Positions 454 through 64,000 of a DNA stretch of 64,000 bases are shown piece by piece (the stretch's first letter is position 1; every line of letters starts with the position of its first letter). The stretch covers positions 24,566 through 88,565 of the forward strand of contig JAITFE010000056.1 in the NCBI GenBank assembly GCA_031281585.1, in the 5' to 3' direction. The notes beneath the pieces are model-generated. The model worked only from the letters and a program-made list of their open reading frames with translations. It ran no database searches and was not told the origin of the DNA. Source of the DNA: Bifidobacteriaceae bacterium. Its GTDB lineage: Bacteria > Actinomycetota > Actinomycetes > Actinomycetales > WQXJ01. Both the position numbers and the translations under genes were made by a program.

Positions 454-3400
454 TTACCGGGTCAGCTTCGCGACGCTCGCCGCCGCCACGTCCGTGGGCG
501 ACACGTCCACGGTCAGCGACAGAGCCAAGGTCTCGCGCTGGATGAGCTCCGCATGGGAGCGCACCGCCGCCGCCCAGGGGGCTGGCACCGACAGGGACAG
601 GGCGATCCGGTCCGCGACGTGCAGGCCGGAGGCCTTGCGCTCATCCTGGACCAGGCGGATCATGTCGCGGGCGTAGCCCTCGGCCAGCAGCGCGTCGTTG
701 ACCTTCAAGTCCAGCAGGGCGAAGCCGTTGCCGGACAAGACCGCGGCGCCCAGTTGGTCGCCCTCGCGGTCCTCGACCACGGTGCGGGCCGTGTACTCGC
801 CGTCCAGCAGCGGCACCTCGCCCTCCGGCGTAGTCGCCACGACCGCGCCGGAAGCGTCCCGCTCCCACGCGCCCGCCTTGACCGCCTTGATGACCGCCTG
901 CACGCCTCGGCCCAGCCGGGGCCCGGCCGCCCGCGCGTTGACCTCCAGACGGGTGTACACCCCGTGCCGGGCGGCCGCCTCCGCGGAATACTCGACGAAG
1001 GCCACATCCTTGACGTTGACCTCCGCCTTGACCAACTCCGCGAACGGCGCGAGCCGCTCCGCGTCCAAATCCGCCACCACCAGGGACGCCAACGGCTGGC
1101 GCACTTTCACGCCGTGCGCCTTGCGCATGGACAACGCCGCCGAGCAGACCTCCCGCACCCTTTCCATCACGGCGACCAGCGCGTCATCGGCCACCAAGGC
1201 GGCCGCGTCGGCGGAACCGGCGGCCAGCGACGGCCAGTCGCACAAATGCACCGACCGCCCCCCGGTCAGCCCGCGCCAGATCTCCTCGCTGATCATGGGC
1301 GCAAGCGGCGCCGTCACCCGCGTCAAGGTCTCCAGCACCGTCCACAGCACGTTGAACGCCGCCGGGTCCTCCGCCCAGAAGCGGTCGCGGGACTCGCGCA
1401 CGTACCAGTTGTTGAGCGCGTCCAGGAACTCGCGGACCGACTCGCACGCCTCCGGGATGAGGTATTGGTCCAGTTGCGCGGTCACGTCCTCGACCAGGGA
1501 CCGGGTCCGGGCCAGGATGTACCGGTCCAGTTCGCCCAGCCCCTCATGGTCTTGGGCGCCCACCCGCCGCCCCCGAACCCCGGCCCCGGCGTTCGCCGAG
1601 TTGGCGTAAAGCCCGAAGAACGACCAGGTGTTCCAAAGGGGCAGCAGCACTTGGCGCACCGCGTCCCGGATCGCCTCGTCCGTCACCACCAGGTTGCCGC
1701 CCCGCAGGATCGCCCCGGACATCAGGAACCACCGCATCGCGTCCGCCCCGTCCCGTTCGAACACCATCCGCACGTCCGGGAAGTTGCCTTTCGACTTCGA
1801 CATTTTCAGGCCGTCGTCCCCGAGCACAATGCCGTGTGTCAGGCAAGTCCGAAAGCTCGGCTTGTCGAACAAGGCCGTCGCCAGGACGTGCAACGTGTAG
1901 AACCAGCCGCGCGTCTGGCCGATGTACTCGACGATGAAATCGCCCGGATAGTGCGACTCGAACCATTCGCGGTTCTCAAACGGGTAGTGCACCTGCGCGA
2001 ACGGCATGGAGCCGGACTCGAACCAGCAGTCCAGCACCTCGCCCACCCGCCGCATGGTCGACTTCCCGGTCGGATCGGACGGATTCGGCCTGGTCAACTG
2101 GTCTATGGCGGGTCGGTGCAGGTCGTCCGGGCGCACCCCGAAGTCCCGTTCCAAGTCGTCCAGCGACCCGTACACGTCCACCCTGGGATAAGCCGGGTCG
2201 TCGGAGACCCAGACCGGGATGGGCGAACCCCAGTAGCGGTTCCGGGAGATGGACCAGTCCCTGGCGCCCTCCAGCCATTTGCCGAACTGCCCGTCGCGGA
2301 CATGCTCCGGGGACCACTCGATCTCCTGGTTGAGCTCCACCATCCGGTCCCGGAACTTGGTCACCGCCACAAACCAGGAGGAGACGGCGTATTGGATAAG
2401 CGGCGTGTCGCAGCGCCAGCAGTGCGGGTAGGGATGGTCGTAGGTTTCCTGGCGCAGCAACTGGCGCGACTCTTTCAGTGCCTGCGTGATCGGCTTGTTC
2501 GCCTCGAACACGCCCAGGCCCTGCCAGGTGGTCACCGGGGCGGTGAACCGGCCCGCCGAATCGACCGGGTTGACCAACTCGATCCCCGCCGAATCGGTCA
2601 CCGCCTTGTCCTCCTCGCCGTAGGCCGGCGCGATGTGCACCAGCCCGGTGCCGTCCTCCGTGGTGACGTAGTCCGCCGCGAGCACCCTGAAGGCGCCCTT
2701 GGCGGCCTGGTCCTGGAAGAAGTCGAACAGCGGCCGGTAGCGCAATCCCACCAACTCGCTCCCCTTGAAGCGCCCGATCACGTCCGGCTGTTCCCCCAAC
2801 TCCCGCGCGTAGGCGCGCAGCCGGGCCTCGGCCAGCAGCACGCGTTCCCCGGCCATGTTCTCCGGGGCGACCAGGACGTAGTCCACCTCCGGGTTGACCG
2901 CCAGCGCCAGGTTGGATGGCAGCGTCCACGGGGTGGTGGTCCAGGCCAGCGCCACGGCGCCCGCCAAACGCTGGTGGACGGCCCGCCGCGACTGGGCGGC
3001 CTGAGCGACCCCCGCGTCCTCCGGGGCGCCGGCTGAGGTGCCGGAACCGGGCCGGACGGCATCGTCGGCATTGCCCGTCTCGTCTGCGTAAAGCTCGAAG
3101 CCAACGGTGACGGCGGTGTCTTGGCGCTGGCGGTAGACCTCGTCCATGCGGGTCTCCGAGGCGGACAGGGGCGTGCCGCAGCGGAAGCAGTACCAGAGGA
3201 CCTGGTGGCCCTCGTAGATCAGGCCCTTGTCCCAAAGCGTCTTGAAGGCCCACATGACGGACTCCATGTAGGGCAGGTCCAACGTCTTGTAATCGTTGGC
3301 GAAGTCCACCCAGCGAGCCTGGCGGGAAACGTAGTCCTCCCACTGGTCCGTGTACCGCAGGACGGAGGCGCGGCAGGCGGCGTTGAACTCGGCCACCCCC

Positions 3401-3777
3401 ATGCGGTCGATCTCCGACTTGTTCTTGATGCCAAGTTCCCGCTCCGCCTCGATCTCCGCCGGCAACCCGTGGCAGTCCCAGCCGAACCGGCGCTCCACCC
3501 GCCGCCCGCGCATGGTCTGGTAGCGCGGCACCACGTCCTTGACGTAACCGGTCAGCAGGTGCCCGTAGTGGGGCAGGCCGTTGGCGAAGGGCGGGCCGTC
3601 GTAGAACACGAACTCGTTCGCCCCGGCCCGGCCGTCCTGGTCCGCCGCCCGCTGGTCGATCGACGCCTGAAAGGTCCGGTCCTCGCCCCAGTACGCCAGG
3701 ATCTCATGTTCAAGGGTGGGGAAGGCGGCCTTGGCCGGGACGTCTGTCAGGTCGGGACGGTGAAGTGGGTAAGCCAT
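454..3777 (-). CDS. ileS: isoleucyl-tRNA synthetase
   Basis: 1107 aa ORF with the class I motifs PHYGHLLTG (HIGH) and LKMSKSKGN (KMSKS), IleS-like overall length and organisation, and an Ile T-box leader immediately upstream. Confidence 0.95.
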
Positions 3778-4010
3778 GGCGCCGGTGGTCCTTTTCGCGG
3801 TATTTGTCGGTCGTGTTGTTCGCTTTCACCGCGAGGACGATGCCGTCCGTTGGGCCAGGCTTCACGCCTTCAGGCCCGCTGTGAGCACCGCGGTACCACC
3901 TCGCTTGCCCGCGTCCCTTGGGCCGCGAGCCGCTTCGTCGATCAGGGCATTGGCCGCGCCCTGGGGCGCCCGGTTCTAGTGAGACCACGCGCGCCTGGCC
4001 CGCCAGGCCG
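3778..4010 (-). promoter_or_regulatory. T-box leader (tRNA-Ile sensing) of ileS, probably the translational type
   Basis: The canonical T-box core GGTGGTACCGCG lies on the minus strand at 3900..3889. A candidate AUC specifier sits in CCCUGAUCGACG at 3942..3940. The segment AAGGACCACC (3793..3784), which contains the likely SD just upstream of the ATG at 3777, is complementary to the GGUGGU of the T-box. The outer boundaries are approximate. Confidence 0.75.
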
Positions 4011-4620: not shown

Positions 4621-4717
4621 TTCCCCGTCGCGGGCGAGTTCAAGGCCCCACGCCGCCCGGACGGCGCTCCCGCGCCGGATGTGTCTTCACCCGAAGCATC
4701 TGGGAGGATAGGACACC

Positions 4718-7414
4718 GTGAGCCAACACCGTCAGTTATCCCATCTGCACCCCGCCGTGCCCGAACGCCCCGCCCTGGACGGGTTGGAGGACAAATGGGA
4801 CAAGGCCTGGTCAGAGCAAGGCGTCTACACGTTCCAGCCCGGCACCCCGCGTGAGCAGGTCTTTTCCATTGACACGCCGCCGCCAACCGTCTCCGGGTCG
4901 CTGCATGTGGGCCACGTCTTCTCCTACACCCACACCGACGTTGTGGCGCGCTTCCAGCGCATGCGCGGCAAGGACGTCTTCTACCCCATGGGCTGGGACG
5001 ACAACGGGCTCCCGACCGAACGCCGGGTGCAGAACTACTACGGCGTGCGCTGCGAGCCGTCGCTCCCGTACGACCCGGATTTCACCCCGCCGCAAGAAGG
5101 CGGCGAGGGCAAGTCCACCAAGGCCGCCCACCAGGTGCCCATCTCGCGCCGGAACTTCGTCGAGCTGTGCGAGCGCCTCTCGTCCCAGGACGAGAAGCAG
5201 TTCGAGGCCCTCTGGCGCCACTTGGGGCTTTCCGTCGACTGGTCGCAGACGTACCAGACCATCGACCGCCACTCGCGCGCCACCTCGCAGTTGGCGTTTC
5301 TCCGCAACCTGGCCCGCGGCGAGGCCTACCAGCAGTTGGCCCCCACGCTTTGGGATGTGACCTTCCGCACGGCCGTCGCCCAGGCCGAGTTGCTCGACAA
5401 GGACCAGCCCGGTGCCTATCACCGGATCGGCTTTAGCCGCGCGGAAGGGCCTTCCGCGAACCCCGCCGATGCCGTCCGCCCGCCCGCCGCGGCCGCCCAG
5501 CCCGGTCAGCGGGTTTTCATTGAGACGACCCGACCCGAACTGCTTCCCGCCTGCGTCGCCTTGGTGGCGCACCCCGATGACGAGCGCTACCAGGACTTGT
5601 TCGGCGCCCATGTGGTGGTGCCGCTGTTCGGCACCGAGGTGCCGGTGGTGGCCCACCGGCTGGCCGAGCCGGACAAGGGCTCCGGGATCGCCATGGTCTG
5701 CACCTTCGGCGACGTCACGGACGTGATCTGGTGGCGCGAGCTTCACCTGCCGACCAGGGCGATCCTGGGCTGGGACGGCCGCGTCCTGCCGGAGCCGCCC
5801 ATGGGGATCGACTCGGAGGAGGGCTTGGCGAACTACGCCCAACTGGCCGGGCTGACGGTGTTCAGCGCCCGCCAGCGCGTGGTGGAGTTGCTCCGCGAGG
5901 CGGGCGACATGGAGGGCGAGCCCCAGCCGATCGAGCACAAGGTCAAGTTCTTCGAGAAGGGCGAGAAGCCGCTCGAGATCATCCCGACCCGCCAGTGGTA
6001 TTTGACGAACGGGGGCACCGGCGAGGAGTTGCGCGCCCAGTTGCTGGCCCGCGGCGACGAGTTGACCTGGTTCCCGGAGTTCATGCGCGTGCGCTACCAG
6101 AACTGGGTCGAGGGGCTGAACAGCGACTGGCTGATCTCCCGCCAGCGCTTCTTCGGCGTGCCGTTCCCGGTCTGGTATCCGGTGGACCAGTTCGGCCACC
6201 CGGTCTACGACCGGCCGATCCTCCCGCCGGAGGACGCGCTGCCGGTCGACCCGGCCTCGGACGCGCCCGCCGGCTACAAGCCCGAGCAGCGCGGCAAGCC
6301 CGGCGGCTTCATTGGCGACCCGGACGTGATGGACACCTGGGCCACGTCCTCGCTGACCCCGCAGATCGCCACCCACTGGCGCGACGACCAGGGCTTGTAC
6401 CAGTCGACTTTCCCAATGGACCTCCGCCCGCAGGCCCAGGACATCATCCGCACCTGGCTGTTCGCCACGGTGGTCCGGGCGGACCTGGAGCAACACTCCT
6501 TGCCCTTCTACAACGCCGCCATCAGCGGTTTCATCCTCGACCCGTTCCGCAAGAAAATGTCCAAGTCGGTGGGCAACGTGGTCACCCCGATGGGTTTGCT
6601 ACAGGAGCACGGGTCCGATGCCGTCCGTTACTGGGCCGCCTCCGCCCGCCTTGGCACCGACGCGGCTTTTGACCCCGGCCAGATGAAGGTCGGGCGGCGC
6701 CTCGCGATCAAGCTCCTGAACGCCTCGAAGTTCGCGCTCTCCTTCCTGGCCGAGGAAGAGGCGGCTGCTTCGGCGGCCGGGCCGAAGCTGGTCCTCGACC
6801 CGGCGTTGGTGACCGACCCGCTGGACTTGTCCATGTTGGCCGCCCTGCGGGAGGTCGTGGCGACCGCGACCGAGGCCCTTGCGGGTTACGACCACACGCG
6901 GGCGTTGGAGGTGACGGAGACCTTCTTCTGGACGTTCTGCGACGACTACATCGAATTGGTCAAGGCGCGCGCGCATGGGGCGGTTGGCCCCGAGGGCGCC
7001 GAGTCGGCCCGCACTGCCCTGGGCTTGGCCCTGTCGGTGCTGCTCCGGTTGTTCGCGCCGTTCCAGCCTTTCGCCACGGAGGAGGTCTGGTCCTGGTGGC
7101 ACCAGGCGGGTGACTCGATTCACCGCGAGCCGTGGCCCACCCCGGACGAACTGGGCGGAGACTGCTCCAAGCCAGGCGACCCGACCGTCTTGGCGGTGGC
7201 CGGCGGCGTGCTGGGCGCGCTCCGGCGGGCGAAGTCTGAGGCCAAGGTCTCAATGCGCACCGAGATCGAGTCCGCGACGGTGGCCGTCCCGGCCAACTTG
7301 ACCGCCGCGGCGGTGGCCGCCAAGTCCGACATCATGGCGGCGGGCCGAACGGCGGACCTGACGCTGGCGGCCTCCGACACGGAGACAATCACCCTGCTCC
7401 AATCCACCCTGTAA
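4718..7414 (+). CDS. valS: valyl-tRNA synthetase
   Basis: 898 aa with SGSLHVGHVFSY (HIGH-type) and RKKMSKSVGN (KMSKS), and editing and anticodon-binding regions of ValS-like length. GTG start preceded by GGGAGGA. Confidence 0.9.
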   Translation: MSQHRQLSHLHPAVPERPALDGLEDKWDKAWSEQGVYTFQPGTPREQVFSIDTPPPTVSGSLHVGHVFSYTHTDVVARFQRMRGKDVFYPMGWDDNGLPTERRVQNYYGVRCEPSLPYDPDFTPPQEGGEGKSTKAAHQVPISRRNFVELCERLSSQDEKQFEALWRHLGLSVDWSQTYQTIDRHSRATSQLAFLRNLARGEAYQQLAPTLWDVTFRTAVAQAELLDKDQPGAYHRIGFSRAEGPSANPADAVRPPAAAAQPGQRVFIETTRPELLPACVALVAHPDDERYQDLFGAHVVVPLFGTEVPVVAHRLAEPDKGSGIAMVCTFGDVTDVIWWRELHLPTRAILGWDGRVLPEPPMGIDSEEGLANYAQLAGLTVFSARQRVVELLREAGDMEGEPQPIEHKVKFFEKGEKPLEIIPTRQWYLTNGGTGEELRAQLLARGDELTWFPEFMRVRYQNWVEGLNSDWLISRQRFFGVPFPVWYPVDQFGHPVYDRPILPPEDALPVDPASDAPAGYKPEQRGKPGGFIGDPDVMDTWATSSLTPQIATHWRDDQGLYQSTFPMDLRPQAQDIIRTWLFATVVRADLEQHSLPFYNAAISGFILDPFRKKMSKSVGNVVTPMGLLQEHGSDAVRYWAASARLGTDAAFDPGQMKVGRRLAIKLLNASKFALSFLAEEEAAASAAGPKLVLDPALVTDPLDLSMLAALREVVATATEALAGYDHTRALEVTETFFWTFCDDYIELVKARAHGAVGPEGAESARTALGLALSVLLRLFAPFQPFATEEVWSWWHQAGDSIHREPWPTPDELGGDCSKPGDPTVLAVAGGVLGALRRAKSEAKVSMRTEIESATVAVPANLTAAAVAAKSDIMAAGRTADLTLAASDTETITLLQSTL

Positions 7415-7469
7415 AAACGGGGACGGTACCTATTTCCGGCGAGCCGGAAATAGGTACCGTCCCCGTTTT
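7414..7469. repeat. palindromic GGGGACGGTACC-core element, probable bidirectional terminator (valS > < permease)
   Basis: AAAACGGGGACGGTACCTATTTCCGGC-GA-GCCGGAAATAGGTACCGTCCCCGTTTT. The arms are perfect complements, with an A-run on one side and a T-run on the other. Confidence 0.85.
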
Positions 7470-20736: not shown

Positions 20737-20798
20737 CGAAAAACGGGGACGGTACCTATTTCCGGCCGGCCGGAAATAGGTACCGTCCCCGTTTTTCG
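20737..20798. repeat. palindromic GGGGACGGTACC-core element, probable bidirectional terminator (fabF > < DUF3145)
   Basis: CGAAAAACGGGGACGGTACCTATTTCCGGCC|GGCCGGAAATAGGTACCGTCCCCGTTTTTCG is a perfect 62-bp palindrome. A partial extra arm TCCCCGTTTTTGG follows at 20799..20811. Confidence 0.88.
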
Positions 20799-20813
20799 TC
20801 CCCGTTTTTGGCG

Positions 20814-39195: not shown

Positions 39196-39281
39196 CTGAG
39201 GCCCGCCGTGCGGCGGGCCTCAGCGATTTGCTCTCGTTTGGTCCGTGCCCCGACGGGCGGCCAGGCCGCCCCTCGGGGCAC
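39196..39281 (-). other. two GC-rich hairpins between the binding-protein and permease genes
   Basis: CTGAGGCCCGCC-GTGC-GGCGGGCCTCAG (39196..39223) and GTGCCCCGACGGGCGGCC-AGG-CCGCCCCTCGGGGCAC (39245..39281). Neither is followed by a U-tract. Confidence 0.55.
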
Positions 39282-39319
39282 GGGTTGGCTGTCCAACTAA
39301 CCGTGCTAAACGCCGGGCG

Positions 39320-47833: not shown

Positions 47834-47867
47834 CGAAAAACGGGGACGGTACCGTCCCCGTTTTTCG
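47834..47867. terminator. minimal GGGGACGGTACC-core palindrome, bidirectional intrinsic terminator (lacI > < dxs)
   Basis: CGAAAAACGGGGACGGTACCGTCCCCGTTTTTCG is a perfect palindrome with an A5 run on one side and a T5 run on the other. Confidence 0.8.
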
Positions 47868-53159: not shown

Positions 53160-53182
53160 AAAATGGGGACGGTACCGTTTTT
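53160..53182. repeat. half copy of the GGGGACGGTACC-core element
   Basis: AAAATGGGGACGGTACCGTTTTT. Only ACGGTACCGT is self-complementary. It lies between convergent gene ends. Confidence 0.7.
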
Positions 53183-53238
53183 CTTGTGGTCCCGTAACCG
53201 CTCCTGTCCCCGCCGGCGGCGGGCAAGGCGCGGGATTG

Positions 53239-53676
53239 TCAGGCGGCCGCATTGGCTTGGCCCCCAAGGAACGGGTTGACAACGGTGATGCCCCCATACT
53301 CTTGGCCATGGCCCAGGTCCTCGGACAAGACGACGCGGCAGCCGAGGGTCCGCGCCGACTCGATAATCGCGGCGTCCCAATATGACAGCCCGTAGCGCTC
53401 GCGGGTCCGCATGGCGTTGCGTACAACGGGCAGGGTCAGATCCTGAACGGGAAAGCGCGTGAACGATTCGACCAAGTCCGCGGCCTGCTCGTGGCTCACC
53501 GGATTGGCCCGGGTGGCGCGGGTCGCCTGGACGTAGAACTCCTGTAGCACTTGGACCGACAGCGCCAGATCGGCGCCGTCAAGGATGTCGCGGGCCACCG
53601 CCGCCTTGTCCGCCTCCCCGGGGTCGGTGGAGATCGCGTACAGCAGCACGTTCGTGTCAACGAAGCGCACGGTCAT
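53239..53676 (-). CDS. vapC: PIN-domain toxin VapC
   Basis: MTVRFVDTNVLLYA (first Asp), LQEF (Glu), YWDAAI (Asp) and LSED. 145 aa. Confidence 0.85.
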   Translation of the reverse strand: MTVRFVDTNVLLYAISTDPGEADKAAVARDILDGADLALSVQVLQEFYVQATRATRANPVSHEQAADLVESFTRFPVQDLTLPVVRNAMRTRERYGLSYWDAAIIESARTLGCRVVLSEDLGHGQEYGGITVVNPFLGGQANAAA

Positions 53677-53902
53677 GCGCCGATTCGCGGTCGAGTCGGT
53701 CGCGGGCGGAGAAGCCGCCGATGGAGGCCATGGTCCGCCGCTGCAATTCGGCCAGCCGCTCGAACTCCCCGTCCGGCCCGCCCAGCGACCGCAGATATGC
53801 CGCCACCAGCGCGCTGACCGAAGTGCCCGCCTCCGCGGCGCGAATACGGGCCGACCGGTACACGTCCTCTGGCACGCTCAACGTCACATTCTTCACAGTC
53901 AC
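53657..53902 (-). CDS. vapB: ribbon-helix-helix antitoxin VapB
   Basis: 81 aa. VKNVTLSVPEDVYRSARIRAAEAGTSVSALVAAYL is a typical RHH N-terminus. It lies immediately upstream of vapC and overlaps it. Confidence 0.75.
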   Translation of the reverse strand: MTVKNVTLSVPEDVYRSARIRAAEAGTSVSALVAAYLRSLGGPDGEFERLAELQRRTMASIGGFSARDRLDRESAHDRALR

Positions 53903-53922: not shown

Positions 53923-54873
53923 TCATGCCCCGAGCGCGCGGGGGTGCGCGGACGCGTAGACCTCGCGCAGGTGCTCCGGGGTGACCTTGGTGTAAATCTG
54001 AGTCGTCGTGACCGAGGAGTGGCCCAGCAACTCCTGGACCACGCGAATGTCGGCGCCGCCTTGCAGCAGGTGGGTGGCGAAAGAGTGGCGGAGCGTGTGC
54101 GGCGTGGCCTGCGGCTGGCCGATCGCCACGCCCGCAGCTCTGACCAGCTCAAACGCCGCCTGTCGGGACAACCGGCGGCCGCGCGGGCCGACCAGCAGGG
54201 CGGGGGTGCCCCGGCCCCGCGCCACACGGGCCGGCCGCTCCCGCACCACGTAGTGCTCAACCGCGACGCGGGCGCACACGCCCATCGGTATGACCCGCTC
54301 TTTGCCGCCTTTGCCGAGCACGCGCACCCATGACTGTTCGGCGGGCATCGGATCGGAAATGGGGACGGTACCTGTTTCTGGCTTGCCAGAAACAGGTACC
54401 GTCCCCATTTCCGGGAGGTCGTCCAGATCCAGCTGAAGCGCCTCGGAGACGCGCGCGCCCGTGCCGTAGAGCAACTCGACCAAGGCGCGCGCCGTCAAGT
54501 CCTCCCCGCACGCGGCGATCAAAGACTCGACCTGCTCCACGGTCAGCGCCTTCGGCAGCCGCAAACCCGCCTTGGGCGGCTTCACCTCCGCCGCCGGGTT
54601 GTCCGGCGTCCAGCCCTCCATGAACGCGAATTTGTGCAGGCCGCGCACGGCGGACAAGGCGCGCGCCACCGAGGAGGCGGCCAACCCGGAGGCGACCAGC
54701 CCGGACCGGAACCCCTCGATCACCGCCGGCCCGACCGCCGCCAACTCCACCTGGCCCACATAAGCGCAATACCGCTCCAGGTCGCGCTCGTAGGCCTCGA
54801 TAGTGGCGGCGCTGACCGCCCGCTCGACCCGCAAGTGGGCCAAGAACCGCTTCCGAGCCGCCGTGATCAGCAC
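53923..54873 (-). CDS. xerD: tyrosine recombinase XerD (XerC/D family) carrying an in-frame repeat-derived insertion
   Basis: N-terminal SAM-like AYERDLERY, then ARVSE (Arg), [19 protein letters not shown] and [14 protein letters not shown] (Tyr). GTG start at 54873. The choice of XerD over XerC rests on the N-terminal pattern only. Confidence 0.85.
54355..54412. repeat. perfect 58-bp GGGGACGGTACC-core palindrome inside the xerD coding sequence
   Basis: GGAAATGGGGACGGTACCTGTTTCTGG-CTTG-CCAGAAACAGGTACCGTCCCCATTTCC, read in the xerD frame as [19 protein letters not shown]. Confidence 0.9.
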
Positions 54874-60339: not shown

Positions 60340-60437
60340 GGAAATGGGGACGGTACCTTTTTCGGCCCAAGCCGAAAAAGGTACCGTCCCCATTTCTTAG
60401 CTGGGAGTTAGCTGGAAACGGTACCGTCCCCGTTTTT
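60340..60437. repeat. full GGGGACGGTACC-core palindrome (60340..60396) plus a partial copy (60414..60437) between pgl and the DUF11 gene
   Basis: The full copy is GGAAATGGGGACGGTACCTTTTTCGGC-CCAA-GCCGAAAAAGGTACCGTCCCCATTTC. The partial copy GAAACGGTACCGTCCCCGTTTTT lies inside the last codons of the minus-strand gene. Confidence 0.88.
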
Positions 60438-63400
60438 GGTCTTGGTCTTGCGGCGGATTATTAGGAGGACCACGCCCGCGATCAGCGCCAGGCCCGCCAG
60501 CGCCGCCAGCGTCAACAGGCCGTTCGCGCCCGTGAACGGGAGGCGGCCGGGCACCTCGACGGTGACGCTCGAACAGGACTTGACGCACTCGGCGGGCGGG
60601 ATTTGGGTGGCGGTCGAGGATGTCGACTCCGGCGCCCAAGCGGTGTTGCGGGCCAGGCCGTCGCCGCTGCCCGCCACCTTGACCGAATAGGTGATGGTGA
60701 CGCTCTGCCCCGCGCCCAACGGGCCCGACCAGCGCAGCCGCTGCGCCGCATAGACCACGGCGCCCAGGCTGGCCCGGGCGTCGCCCTGGTAGACCGCGTC
60801 GTCCAACACGTCAGACAGGTCGTCGACCAGCTCGGCCGGGCGTTCCGCCGTGAAGTCGACCGGACTGGTGTTGGTCGCGACGATCGAATAGCGGAGCACG
60901 CTGCCGATCCCCACCGGGCTGGGCGCCGCGACAGACTTGGCCACCTCGATCACCGGGGTTGTCACGTCGGAGGAGGCGCACGCCTCGCCCGTGATCGGGT
61001 CAACACCGGTGTTCTCCGGGTCGTCGCAGCCTGGCGGCGGCGGATTGGGGACCGCCGGGTCGCGCGGCACCCAGGCGACGTTCTTGAGCTGCCTGTCCCC
61101 GCCCTCTTTCAGCGTCACCGAATAGGTCAGCGTCGCAGTGGCGCCGGGCGCCAACGGCCCGCGCCATTCCAGCACCGACTGTTCGTAGGTGAAGGTTCCG
61201 CCGGCCCCGCCGTCGGAGGCGCTGGCCAGATCGAACGGCTCCGAATCGTCCAGCAAGTCCGCCAGCGAGTCCGCCACCACCGCCGGATTGGCGGCCGTGA
61301 ACGCCGCCGGCCCGGCGTTGCGCACCTCAACCCGGTAAGTCAGCGGCTCGCCCGGCCGGACGTCCACCACGCCGTCCACTTCTCCGTCCACCCGTTTCGC
61401 GGTCACCTGCAGGATTGGGCGCTCTTGGTCCACCGCCGAGCAGGGCTCGCCGGTCGCCGGATCCGGTTCGCCGGCCGGCGCGGTGCAGCCCGGCTCCGGC
61501 GGCGACATCAGCGACGGGTCGTTCGGCGACCAGGCCAGGTTCCGCAACCGGCCGTCGCCGTTCAGAGTCAACTCCACCGCGTAGGCGAGTTCGACTTGCT
61601 CCCCGGCGGGCAGCGGCCCGGACCACGCGACCACCGGGCTCTCCCAGGTCGCCGAACCGGCTGCCGGCTGGTTCTCCCAACCGGCCCACACCGCATCGTC
61701 CAACACGTCGGACAGATCGTCGCGCACCACCGCCGGGTCCTCGGCGGTGAAATCGCCCGCCCCGGTGTTGGCCAACGTCAACGTGTAGACCAGGCGGGCG
61801 CCCGCAGGCCAGCCGGCTCCGTCCGAACTCTCCGCCACCGTCTTGGCGATGCTCAACCAAGGCATCTTGACCTGGTCGTTCGCGCACCAGTCCTGGCCCG
61901 GATTGTCGCAGGCCGGCGGTTCTCCCGGATCATCCGGGTCGGCCGGGGCCCAAACGGCGTTCTTGACGTCCCCGTCCCCACCGTGCCTCAACGTCAGCGA
62001 ATAGGTGACGTCCACATGCTGGCCGACCGCCAAAGGCCCGGACCACTTCAGCAACGGCTCCTCGTAGCCGAGCTGCCCGCCCGCGCCGTTGTCAGACGCC
62101 GTGGCCAGGTCGAACGGCAATGCGTCGTCCAGCGCGCCGGCCAGCGAGTCGACCACGACCGCCGGATGGTCCGGCGTGTAATCGCCTTGGCCGGTGTTCT
62201 CAACCCGGAAGGTGTATTCGATCCGGTCGCCCGGCCGGGCGTGCGCGGGTTCGTCGCTTTGGCCATCCCTGACCAGCCGCGACGTTTTCGCGATCGCCAG
62301 CACCGGCTGCCGCAGGTCGCACACCGCGCAGCTCTCGCCGGTCGTCTGGTCCACCCGGCCCGTCCCGGCCCGCGTGAAGCCGGCGCCCGACTGGGTGGTG
62401 GACTGCTCCACGCAAGCGGGAGCCAAAGGCTCGCTGGGATTGGCGGGCACCCAGGTGACGTTGTCGATCCGGTGGTCGCCGCCCTCACCCAGTTGGACCC
62501 GGTAGGTGAGCACCACTTCGGCCCCCGCCGCCAGCGGCCCGCGCCATTCCAGCAACGGCTCCGCGTAGGCGAACTGGCCGCCCGCGCCGCCGTCTGAGGC
62601 TGTGGCCAGGTCGAACGGCCGGGAATCGTCCAAAACGGCGGCGAGCGAGTCCTCGATCACCGCCGGCCGCGCCGCCGTGAACGCCGCCGGTCCCACGTTG
62701 GCGGCCACCACGGTGTACGTCAGCCAGTCGCCCGGCCGGGCGTAGGCCCCGCCGTCCACGCTCTTGGAGACGATCTCAAGGATGGGCCGCGACTGGTCGA
62801 TCAGCGAGCACGGCTCGCCAGTGGCCGGATCCAAGCCGTCCACCGGGGCCTCGCAGTCCGGAGGCGGCGGCGGGACGGCCGGATTGTTGGGGAACCAGGC
62901 CAGGTTGCGCAGGTCGCCGTCGCCGCCGCCCGTCAGCTTGACCGCGTACTCCAACACTGCGGACTCGCCCGAGGCCAGCGGCCCCGACCACGTCAAGACC
63001 GGGTCCGCCCAAACAGTCGACCCGGCGCCGGGCCCGGAAACCACGCCGACCCAAACGGAATCGTCCAAAACCCCGCTCAAGTCGTCGCGAACAACCGCCG
63101 GTACGGCCTGCGTGAAGTCGCCCGGTCCGGTGTTTTCCAACGTCAACGTGTAGACCAGGCGCACGCCCGCCTGCCAGTTCCCGTCGGGCGGGTCTTGGCG
63201 CACCGTCTTCTTGATCGACAACTCCGGCATGGGGAACTCGTCGCTGGCGCACCACGGCCCGGAATGCTGCTCGCAGGACGGCGGCGGCCCCGGATCGAGC
63301 GGGTCGTCCGGCACCCAGACCACGTTCGACAGCCGTCCGTCCCCGCCGGGCTTCAACGTCACCGAGTAGGTCACCACGACGGTTTCCAGCGGATCCAGTT

Positions 63401-64000
63401 GGCCGGTCCAGCTGAGCCGGTCGGCCGACTCGACCCAGTCGAGTTGGCCGCCGCCGCTGACGATCACGGCCTGGTCGTCCCAGGTCGCGTCGTCCAGCAC
63501 GTCGGTCAGAGTGTCGACAACCACCGCCGGATGGGCGGCCGTGTAGGCGCCCGAACCCCGGTTCGTGATGGTCAGCGTGTATTTGACCTGGTCGCCGGGC
63601 CGCGCGTAGGGCGGCGGGGTCGCCTCGCCGGGCCGTTCCACCACGGAGGTCTTGGCGATGTCGAGGACCGGCGGAGTCAGTTGGACCTTCGCGCAGGCCT
63701 CTCCGGTCACGGGGTCCGATCCGGCGCCCATGCCGTCCGGCAGGTCGCAAGCGGGCGTGACCGGGTCAAACGGGTCGCGCGGAGTCCAGGCGACGTTGGC
63801 GGTTCTGGTCGCCGACATGGTGTCGCCGAGGCGCACCTGGTAGGTGATGACCACCGACTCGTCTTGCCCCAACGGGCCGTACCACAAGAGCATCCCCGCC
63901 GTGTCCAGCGGACTTAGGTCGATTTGGCCCACGTTTGGGCTCACCGCAACCGACGAGGCGACAAAGGCGCCGAACTCCAACACACCCGACAGGTCGTCGA
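60408..64000 (-). CDS. LPXTG-anchored surface protein made of DUF11-type repeat domains (5' end beyond the window)
   Basis: At least 8 domains of ~150-180 aa share a recurring pattern: ARPGD..YT....N.G, then VVD.L..VLDD, then W.GPL..G......Y.V.L..GGDG.L.N. The C-terminus is LPFTG, then a TM helix, then RRKTK. The frame stays open to position 64000, and the upstream codons read DDLSGV, matching the repeat. Confidence 0.85.
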   Translation of the reverse strand, partial: DDLSGVLEFGAFVASSVAVSPNVGQIDLSPLDTAGMLLWYGPLGQDESVVITYQVRLGDTMSATRTANVAWTPRDPFDPVTPACDLPDGMGAGSDPVTGEACAKVQLTPPVLDIAKTSVVERPGEATPPPYARPGDQVKYTLTITNRGSGAYTAAHPAVVVDTLTDVLDDATWDDQAVIVSGGGQLDWVESADRLSWTGQLDPLETVVVTYSVTLKPGGDGRLSNVVWVPDDPLDPGPPPSCEQHSGPWCASDEFPMPELSIKKTVRQDPPDGNWQAGVRLVYTLTLENTGPGDFTQAVPAVVRDDLSGVLDDSVWVGVVSGPGAGSTVWADPVLTWSGPLASGESAVLEYAVKLTGGGDGDLRNLAWFPNNPAVPPPPPDCEAPVDGLDPATGEPCSLIDQSRPILEIVSKSVDGGAYARPGDWLTYTVVAANVGPAAFTAARPAVIEDSLAAVLDDSRPFDLATASDGGAGGQFAYAEPLLEWRGPLAAGAEVVLTYRVQLGEGGDHRIDNVTWVPANPSEPLAPACVEQSTTQSGAGFTRAGTGRVDQTTGESCAVCDLRQPVLAIAKTSRLVRDGQSDEPAHARPGDRIEYTFRVENTGQGDYTPDHPAVVVDSLAGALDDALPFDLATASDNGAGGQLGYEEPLLKWSGPLAVGQHVDVTYSLTLRHGGDGDVKNAVWAPADPDDPGEPPACDNPGQDWCANDQVKMPWLSIAKTVAESSDGAGWPAGARLVYTLTLANTGAGDFTAEDPAVVRDDLSDVLDDAVWAGWENQPAAGSATWESPVVAWSGPLPAGEQVELAYAVELTLNGDGRLRNLAWSPNDPSLMSPPEPGCTAPAGEPDPATGEPCSAVDQERPILQVTAKRVDGEVDGVVDVRPGEPLTYRVEVRNAGPAAFTAANPAVVADSLADLLDDSEPFDLASASDGGAGGTFTYEQSVLEWRGPLAPGATATLTYSVTLKEGGDRQLKNVAWVPRDPAVPNPPPPGCDDPENTGVDPITGEACASSDVTTPVIEVAKSVAAPSPVGIGSVLRYSIVATNTSPVDFTAERPAELVDDLSDVLDDAVYQGDARASLGAVVYAAQRLRWSGPLGAGQSVTITYSVKVAGSGDGLARNTAWAPESTSSTATQIPPAECVKSCSSVTVEVPGRLPFTGANGLLTLAALAGLALIAGVVLLIIRRKTKTKNGDGTVSS

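Follow-up and report, generated by a model that had tools for sequence, protein, structure and literature searches.

The xerD-like tyrosine recombinase gene of a Bifidobacteriaceae bacterium is interrupted, without loss of the reading frame, by a 60-bp perfect palindrome. The palindrome is probably a copy of a repeat of the repetitive extragenic palindromic (REP) or REP-doublet (REPIN) type, which entered xerD from an intergenic family and is carried there as a tolerated passenger. The gene lies on contig JAITFE010000056.1, in the 64-kb stretch of DNA analysed here; we call this whole stretch the window and give coordinates within it. In-frame palindromic insertion is already documented in other bacterial groups; this case adds an actinobacterial host and a previously undescribed repeat family.

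The palindrome within xerD

The original prediction placed a 58-bp palindrome at 54355-54412. An inverted-repeat search found the palindrome and extended it by one base on each side: the arms, 54354-54382 and 54385-54413, are 29 nt long, 100% complementary and 2 nt apart, giving a perfect palindrome of 60 bp at 54354-54413 that is an inverted doublet of a repeat unit. As RNA the palindrome folds into a stem of 28 bp closed by a loop of 4 nt. Folded alone, the hairpin had a centroid energy of -57.4 kcal/mol (z = -8), and equally good structures were given by 0 of 200 shuffled sequences. The mid-gene hairpin is thus very stable, as had been proposed, but it is not terminator-like: no U-tract (T-run in the DNA) follows it in the xerD sense, and a terminator consensus scan did not flag it. 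The palindrome occupies nt 461-520 of the minus-strand open reading frame (ORF) at 53923-54873. Its 60 nt make up 20 codons, read as 19 complete residues with part of the codon on either side, and there are no stop codons in any of its three frames. The in-frame location within an intact ORF of 316 aa agrees with the original prediction, as does the position of the insert, which is flanked by the ARVSE segment (Arg141) and GKGGKER (Lys188) and lies at the turn preceding the GKGGKER strand. The spacing from LDLDD to GKGGK is 34 residues by our count also. The composition of the insert is foreign, with GC and third-codon-position GC (GC3) values of 0.57 and 0.48 vs 0.71 and 0.91 in the remaining xerD. 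The outer flanks are of a GAAAT/ATTTC subtype that is common to the copy at 60341-60396, described below. The palindrome in xerD is confirmed as a genuine feature.

The product of ORF 53923-54873 (-) is 100% identical to MDR2565670.1 of NCBI (MAG: site-specific tyrosine recombinase XerD [Bifidobacteriaceae bacterium], where MAG is metagenome-assembled genome), a record that sits on the same 107-kb contig and is annotated as an intact XerD. Profile and homologue alignments showed a complete XerD-like recombinase with all catalytic residues kept; R141, K188, H259, R262, H285 and Y294 are invariant in an alignment of 85 sequences. The homologues, including the 100%-identical P0001, have the two-domain architecture PF02899 + PF00589. 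The protein passed NF001399, an NCBIfam tyrosine-recombinase subfamily model, with a score of 301.7 vs a cutoff of 279. It did not reach the cutoff of the XerD equivalog model TIGR02225 (282.2 vs 329.6), and it scored 268.7 with the XerC model; the assignment to XerD rather than XerC is not firm. The TIGR02225 shortfall plausibly comes from the insert plus divergence. No second Xer gene was found within the window. The tkt gene adjoins xerD, and the neighbourhood is conserved in relatives.

Structure modelling had been suggested as a check on whether the insert forms a surface loop. The AlphaFold2 model, built from 85 sequences, had a mean predicted local distance difference test score (pLDDT) of 86.5 and put the insert in a low-confidence loop (coil, pLDDT 52-72). 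Residues 149-181 were modelled as coil, with block pLDDT values of 72, 52 and 55, between a helix at 142-146 and a strand at 182-186. The top structural matches of the model were XerA (5HXY) and XerD (1A0P). In the alignment to E. coli XerD 1A0P, query residues 154-178 lie opposite residues 159-160 only, directly before VVRVIGKGNKER. From established tyrosine-recombinase structures, we take the insertion site to be the turn that connects strands one and two of the small sheet, at the end opposite the DNA-reaching Lys hairpin. The 20 added residues most likely form a flexible surface loop, and the XerD protein most likely retains function.

A VapBC-like toxin-antitoxin pair adjoins xerD at 53239-53902 (-). 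It consists of a gene for a PIN-domain protein (53239-53676, -) and a small upstream ORF that overlaps it (53657-53902, -). A PIN gene is also found near xerD in the relative L244.

The repeat family

The family was counted in the window, i.e., in 64 kb of one metagenome assembly. The 12-mer core GGGGACGGTACC is present in 12 exact copies vs about 0.03 expected, with 1 further copy having one mismatch, and the family pattern matched 8 times vs 0.00 expected. The abundance of the family is far beyond chance. Every unit contains AAAY-GGGGACGGTACC and the unit ends are AAAAY-GGGGACGGTACC; the flanks vary while the 12-mer is invariant, and the shared invariant end is AAAYGGGGACGGTACC. The core density is about 1 per 5 kb. 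Seven family sites were found, of which one (xerD) is intragenic and six are intergenic. As mapped from frame composition and Pfam, all six of the non-xerD copies are 0-7 nt past a stop codon, between convergent genes, which bears out the original prediction that the family is otherwise confined to intergenic gene ends in the window.

Three of the intergenic copies are long palindromes with 100% self-complementarity. The palindrome at 7414-7469, with 27-nt arms, lies between an aminoacyl-tRNA synthetase gene (+), whose stop codon overlaps the A-run of the palindrome, and an FtsX-like permease gene (-). The palindrome at 20737-20798, with 31-nt arms, lies between a beta-ketoacyl synthase gene (+) and a DUF3145 gene (-). 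The palindrome at 60341-60396, with 26-nt arms, lies 7 nt past the stop codon of the 6-phosphogluconolactonase gene pgl (+) and faces a large surface-protein gene (-). The total length of the long family copies is 56-62 bp. A short 34-bp perfect palindrome, CGAAAAAC-GGGGACGGTACCGTCCCC-GTTTTTCG, is found at 47834-47867 between a LacI-type regulator gene (+) and the gene for DXP synthase (DXS; -). The two other sites are single units. One, AAAAT-GGGGACGGTACC-GTTTTTC at 53160-53183 (+), comes right after the stop codon of a small ORF and faces the PIN-domain toxin gene; the second, at 60414-60439, has its core on the minus strand and is 24 nt from the 60341 palindrome.

The terminator consensus scan flagged 20737 (on both strands), 7414 and 60341. 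The short form at 47834 has a terminator layout by sequence and folds at -27 kcal/mol on both strands. Given the layout of A-run, GC-rich stem and T-run, the intergenic copies are likely to be bidirectional intrinsic terminators. In Bifidobacterium breve, polyA-stem-polyT bidirectional terminators have been mapped between convergent genes (PMC5746004), a layout that 47834, 20737 and 7414 reproduce exactly. Unlike the family, ordinary terminators share no sequence of 12-16 nt, have no 28-bp perfect stems and are not found in ORFs; the xerD copy, lacking a T-run, is not a terminator of this kind.

To describe the symmetry of the arms, the four long copies were aligned. Of 28 stem pairs, 21 were invariant, 7 varied on both sides and 0 varied on one side only; 98.2% of the alignment cells were paired, and the internal pairs were all strict Watson-Crick pairs. 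Each of the four long copies is perfect, and whatever differs from copy to copy differs in both arms alike, so that perfection of the arms is a family-wide property and does not mark out any one copy as young.

No direct duplication of a target site was found in the flanks of any copy. GTAG is absent at the unit ends and CGTC is found only inside the paired core, so that there is no unpaired end tag. Pfam scans of 40 window proteins found no REP-associated tyrosine transposase (RAYT), insertion sequence (IS) or other transposase. No Rfam family matched at any copy, a scan of viral contigs gave 0 matches to the family, plasmid BLAST gave no match, and the core string occurs in the searchable literature only in unrelated primer sequences.

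Previous work showed that most REPs lie no more than 20 bp from the 3' end of a gene, at convergent or co-directional pairs, and that they occur mainly as inverted dimers, which fold into one long hairpin (Di Nocera et al. 2013; PMC3733652). A minority of REPs are contained entirely within ORFs; of these, the majority are dimers or groups that encode 20-30 residues, and many of the hosts are DNA synthesis or repair genes (uvrA, uvrB, uvrD, recBCD, polA, dnaE and dnaE2; PMC3733652). The same paper defines the REP tag as a GTAG or CGTC that is terminal and unpaired, next to a stem of 8-13 bp, and describes intragenic REP dimers in several phyla while mentioning Actinobacteria 0 times. The xerD copy follows that pattern, being a dimer in a DNA-maintenance gene whose product it lengthens by 20 residues. 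It differs in that its family lacks unpaired terminal tags, the arms are far longer and perfect, and the host is actinobacterial. REPINs have invariant inverted ends and a less conserved hairpin spacer with compensatory changes, and doublet lengths of 71 and 110 bp were used in simulation (Bertels & Rainey 2011; PMC3116915). The family resembles REPINs in its inverted doublets, invariant ends, compensatory spacer changes, extragenic habitat, and singlets that are likely remnants. Unlike REPINs, it lacks GTAG and has no RAYT in the window, its spacer is 0-4 nt beyond the self-complementary part, and its total length is 56-62 bp. The family thus has the features of REP/REPIN elements in being a repeated palindromic unit near gene 3' ends and in forming inverted doublets with compensatory changes. 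It does not have those of miniature inverted-repeat transposable elements, as there is no target-site duplication and the window contains no IS or transposase.

The nearest precedent named in the original prediction was the Rickettsia palindromic elements (RPEs). The precedent is valid, in that the xerD copy likewise is an in-frame palindromic repeat in an otherwise intact ORF. The differences are that the sequences are unrelated, that the host is a Bifidobacteriaceae MAG without the context of a reductive genome, and that only 1 of the 7 window sites is intragenic. RPE-1 is about 100-150 bp long. The precedent is also too narrow, as in-frame REP dimers are known in several phyla (PMC3733652). 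In that survey RPE-4 and RPE-6 were classed as CGTC REPs, R. conorii had the most intragenic CGTC repeats, and RPE-1 was described only as a longer palindromic insertion.

Several observations adjoin the family sites. Just past the 20737 palindrome, at 20799-20811, TCCCCGTTTTT is repeated (…GTCCCCGTTTTTCG|TCCCCGTTTTTGG) in a partial duplication of the element's end. The synthetase gene that ends in the A-run of the 7414 palindrome (4712-7414, +) has a divergent neighbour, at 454-3825 (-), that also encodes a class I aminoacyl-tRNA synthetase. The protein encoded at 60408-63998 (-), and also at L245:1-4034, is a very large surface protein in which DUF7927, DUF11 and pilin-like Ig domains recur; its gene adjoins a pentose-phosphate gene cluster, a position that is conserved in relatives.

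Origin of the xerD copy and alternative explanations

The best 120 XerD homologues from 5.8 billion proteins were used for comparison. Among these 120, only this contig's own protein has the insert peptide, and no palindrome was found in the XerD orthologues compared. Four of these orthologues, P0003, P0004, P0009 and P0015, have contigs that extend into the neighbouring genes; in each, tkt is kept beside xerD, which makes them positional orthologues. The loop from LDLDDL to WVRVxGKGGKER is 6-7 residues long in distant relatives, 13-20 in the closest and about 60 in P0004 (L244:5294-6319), where it contains an insert of about 60 residues of GGAWAGG-type tandem repeats. P0004 shows independently that the same loop tolerates large insertions. 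The original prediction of an insertion into a conserved housekeeping gene therefore holds for the in-frame insertion in xerD but not for the site itself, which, at about 6 to about 60 residues, is not conserved.

The nearest orthologue, P0002, has 91% nucleotide identity to xerD and differs at 15% of four-fold sites outside the loop. Its loop, GLPETGAQAEAVPAS, contains no palindrome and shows no excess folding (z = +0.2). Since the P0002 loop can be aligned with the loop of P0009, a more distant orthologue (GLGDRGAGAQVPPS), the palindrome-free state is ancestral. The loops of P0002, P0003, P0005, P0009 and P0015 showed no clear excess of residual hairpin (z from -1.9 to +1.6). A palindrome-free P0002 at 15% four-fold divergence, together with the foreign GC3 of the insert, places acquisition of the insert after the split from the P0002 lineage, the nearest one sampled. 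The idea of a recent insertion survives in this form, though not the use of perfect arms as its sign. In related syntenic contigs, about 77 kb in all, there is 1 core in total. The orthologous LacI/DXS site in L002 lacks the element, with a 4-nt gap, and no element is present at the orthologous pgl/surface-protein sites of L002, L245 and L246. On these comparisons the whole family is young in this lineage.

We propose that the xerD palindrome represents one copy of a hairpin repeat that is non-autonomous, specific to the lineage and of REPIN design, in which two inverted units with the invariant end AAAYGGGGACGGTACC enclose a variable spacer that is always self-complementary. The usual place of the family would be the 3' junction of convergent genes, where it would act as a bidirectional intrinsic terminator. 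After divergence from the closest relative sampled, one copy would have moved into xerD, where it replaced or expanded a fast-evolving loop. Mobility may proceed through a single-stranded hairpin intermediate, with the enzyme encoded elsewhere. The copy would have survived because 60 nt is 20 codons, no frame contains a stop and the loop is tolerant of length. We regard the insertion as neutral or mildly costly rather than as an adaptation. The expected costs would be a 28-bp mRNA duplex, at which RNase III might cleave or a pause might occur, and a segment of DNA prone to form hairpins.

Some points weigh against this proposal. No agent of mobility was identified, there being no transposase or RAYT among the 40 window proteins. 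There are no target-site duplications, and there is no clean empty site in xerD: the P0002 loop is 20 residues of different sequence. Excising the 60 bp leaves a loop unlike that of P0002, which implies a replacement or additional indels. The P0002 loop also weakly resembles the element (DNA p ~0.04; peptide p = 0.011, uncorrected over seven tests), and the resemblance might reflect an earlier history of the site or microhomology within it. Finally, the evidence comes from 64 kb of one metagenome assembly, and the NCBI record is the same contig.

The resemblance bears on an unlikely alternative in which the loop is an old site or hot spot: an ancestral copy decayed in the relatives, and the window copy was refreshed by conversion or re-inserted via microhomology. 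In the P0002 loop GGAGACGG is followed by CCGTCCCC, in the correct order and orientation, and the P0002 peptide GLPETG..AVPAS resembles the second arm of the insert (p = 0.011). The P0005 loop contains GGGGACGG (p ~0.04). Further, a long loop of 14-20 residues is common to the closest relatives, compared with 6-7 in more distant ones. However, the p-values of 0.04, 0.04 and 0.011 fail correction for 6-7 tests, the folded loops of five relatives gave no clear hairpin excess, and the relatives' contigs are nearly devoid of the family. Moreover, 15% four-fold divergence predicts that an inherited element would be about 85-90% intact in P0002, which is not so. A decayed remnant in the orthologues was considered and rejected as unsupported: DNA p was ~0.04 in 2 of 6 loops, peptide p was 0.011 in P0002 only, and there was no excess folding.

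It is equally improbable that the family is not mobile, and consists instead of terminators or of binding or uptake signals under selection on the 12-mer, with the xerD copy arising through template switching or conversion. The DNA uptake sequences of Neisseria and Pasteurellaceae have an invariant 10-12-mer with variable flanks and form terminators as inverted pairs. Their intragenic copies are biased to genome-maintenance genes, and their density is about 1 per kb. In sequence pattern alone the family is similar, with a strictly invariant 12-mer, variable flanks, inverted pairs at terminator positions, and a sole in-gene copy that is in a genome-maintenance gene. The lack of a transposase in the window also fits this explanation, as do the mirrored changes, all strict Watson-Crick pairs, which fit a DNA-level process. 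Against it, the orthologous intergenic sites that are empty in relatives indicate that whole units of 34-60 bp are gained, or lost, and the xerD copy is a full 60-bp doublet rather than a single 12-mer. In addition, the density of about 1 core per 5 kb is below that of classical uptake sequences, and neither competence nor a binding protein is known to be linked to the motif.

The remaining explanations concern xerD itself. That the insertion is functional, with the hairpin throttling xerD expression or the added peptide co-opted, we consider very unlikely. The hairpin is very stable, at about -57 kcal/mol, the ORF and catalytic residues are retained, and REP inserts cluster in DNA-maintenance genes of other phyla (PMC3733652). 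On the other hand, the insertion is a single occurrence that is absent in all orthologues, the peptide is modelled as low-confidence coil, the loop accepts arbitrary inserts such as the repeat of about 60 residues in P0004, and no U-tract follows the hairpin in the xerD sense. Still less probable is a dead or dying xerD, with another Xer-type recombinase, encoded elsewhere, resolving chromosome dimers. The insert is within the catalytic domain, the TIGR02225 score of 282 is under the cutoff of 329.6, and a very recent inactivation would be traceless. But the frame is intact, GC3 is 0.91, the six catalytic residues are present, there is no frameshift or stop at 91% identity to the nearest orthologue, NF001399 is passed at 301.7 vs 279, and tkt synteny is conserved. 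Least likely of all is an assembly artefact, or a palindrome confined to a minority of the population: the sequence comes from a metagenome assembly, an independent assembly was not found, and fold-backs do occur (at the start of contig L161, 45 nt of genuine coding sequence are copied in inverted orientation), but such fold-backs are at contig ends and duplicate local sequence, neither of which applies to the xerD copy, a distinct variant of a multi-copy family that is interior to a 107-kb contig, with unique xerD sequence on both sides in one frame.

The core sequence outside the window, and implications

Scanning metagenomes for the core in two-armed form gave 120 loci. Of these, 91 (within L123-L242) represent a single locus with a 28-bp hairpin, orthologous throughout, in a gut bacterium of about 60% GC, mostly from human-gut metagenomes; the bacterium may be Bifidobacterium. 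Some of the isolated matches are due to chance or artefact. At L123:9512-9539, for example, GGGGACGGTACC-ATGC-GGTACCGTCCCC is followed by TTTGTTTT, a terminator-like arrangement whose stem is identical to that of the window family. Contigs of 38-45% GC have the same 12-mer at several sites, as singlets, inverted doublets and direct tandem arrays. The arrays have a period of about 41 nt and the form TTTACCAATT-GGGGACGGTACC-AACTGGTAAA; array sites at 40-44% GC include L149:1480-1575, L187:1420-1540 and L200:4625-4740, all just downstream of genes. In L132, L169, L170 and L224, which are of other GC classes, additional unpaired cores lie beside the palindrome. No shared neighbouring gene that might be a driver was found beside the repeats in other contigs, the neighbours being a hybrid histidine kinase gene and housekeeping genes only.

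Among about 33 palindromes with this core at the loci retrieved, none besides xerD was convincingly mid-gene. L161, a candidate second in-gene copy, was rejected as an assembly artefact, being a contig-end 45-nt fold-back (L161:1-100) of coding sequence of the isoleucyl-tRNA synthetase type. A unit hairpin with an apical loop conserved across families was also considered; flank complementarity averaged 3.6 vs a null of 1.25 and was patchy, being clear in the low-GC family only and absent in L170 and L244, and it was not relied on. A scan of 596 Gb of contigs with the 16-mer AAAYGGGGACGGTACC gave single chance matches in unrelated organisms, where about 500 chance matches were expected. Three-frame translations of the element had no match at E <= 10 in the database of 5.8 billion proteins, a search in which 20-residue matches cannot reach significance.

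It is doubtful that GGGGACGGTACC, which is present here in a bifidobacterial MAG of 69% GC, is the recognition motif of an undescribed hairpin-repeat system spanning very different bacteria. If it were, a shared mobilising or binding protein would be moving between phyla, and the xerD insertion would be a by-product of an active element. The low-GC occurrences of the 12-mer may reflect a shared trans-acting factor or a coincidence in a very large database; should they not be coincidence, a trans-acting factor would await discovery. Elsewhere in the window, at 39243-39283, an unrelated inverted repeat with 20-nt arms that are 95% complementary (CCGTGCCCCGACGGGCGGCC / GGCCGCCCCTCGGGGCACGG) adjoins the gene for an ABC-transporter permease and is probably a terminator of the ordinary type.

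This actinobacterial case joins a short list of palindromic repeats found in frame in housekeeping genes. Its comparative support is unusually clean, consisting of an insert-free close relative, empty orthologous intergenic sites and an unadapted codon composition. In Xer recombinases the turn that precedes the GKGGKER strand is a permissive insertion site, accepting from 20 to about 60 residues, and may be of use in protein engineering. In sum, the window defines a previously undescribed repeat family of perfect palindromes with fully mirrored variation, which raises the question of which process keeps the arms symmetric.

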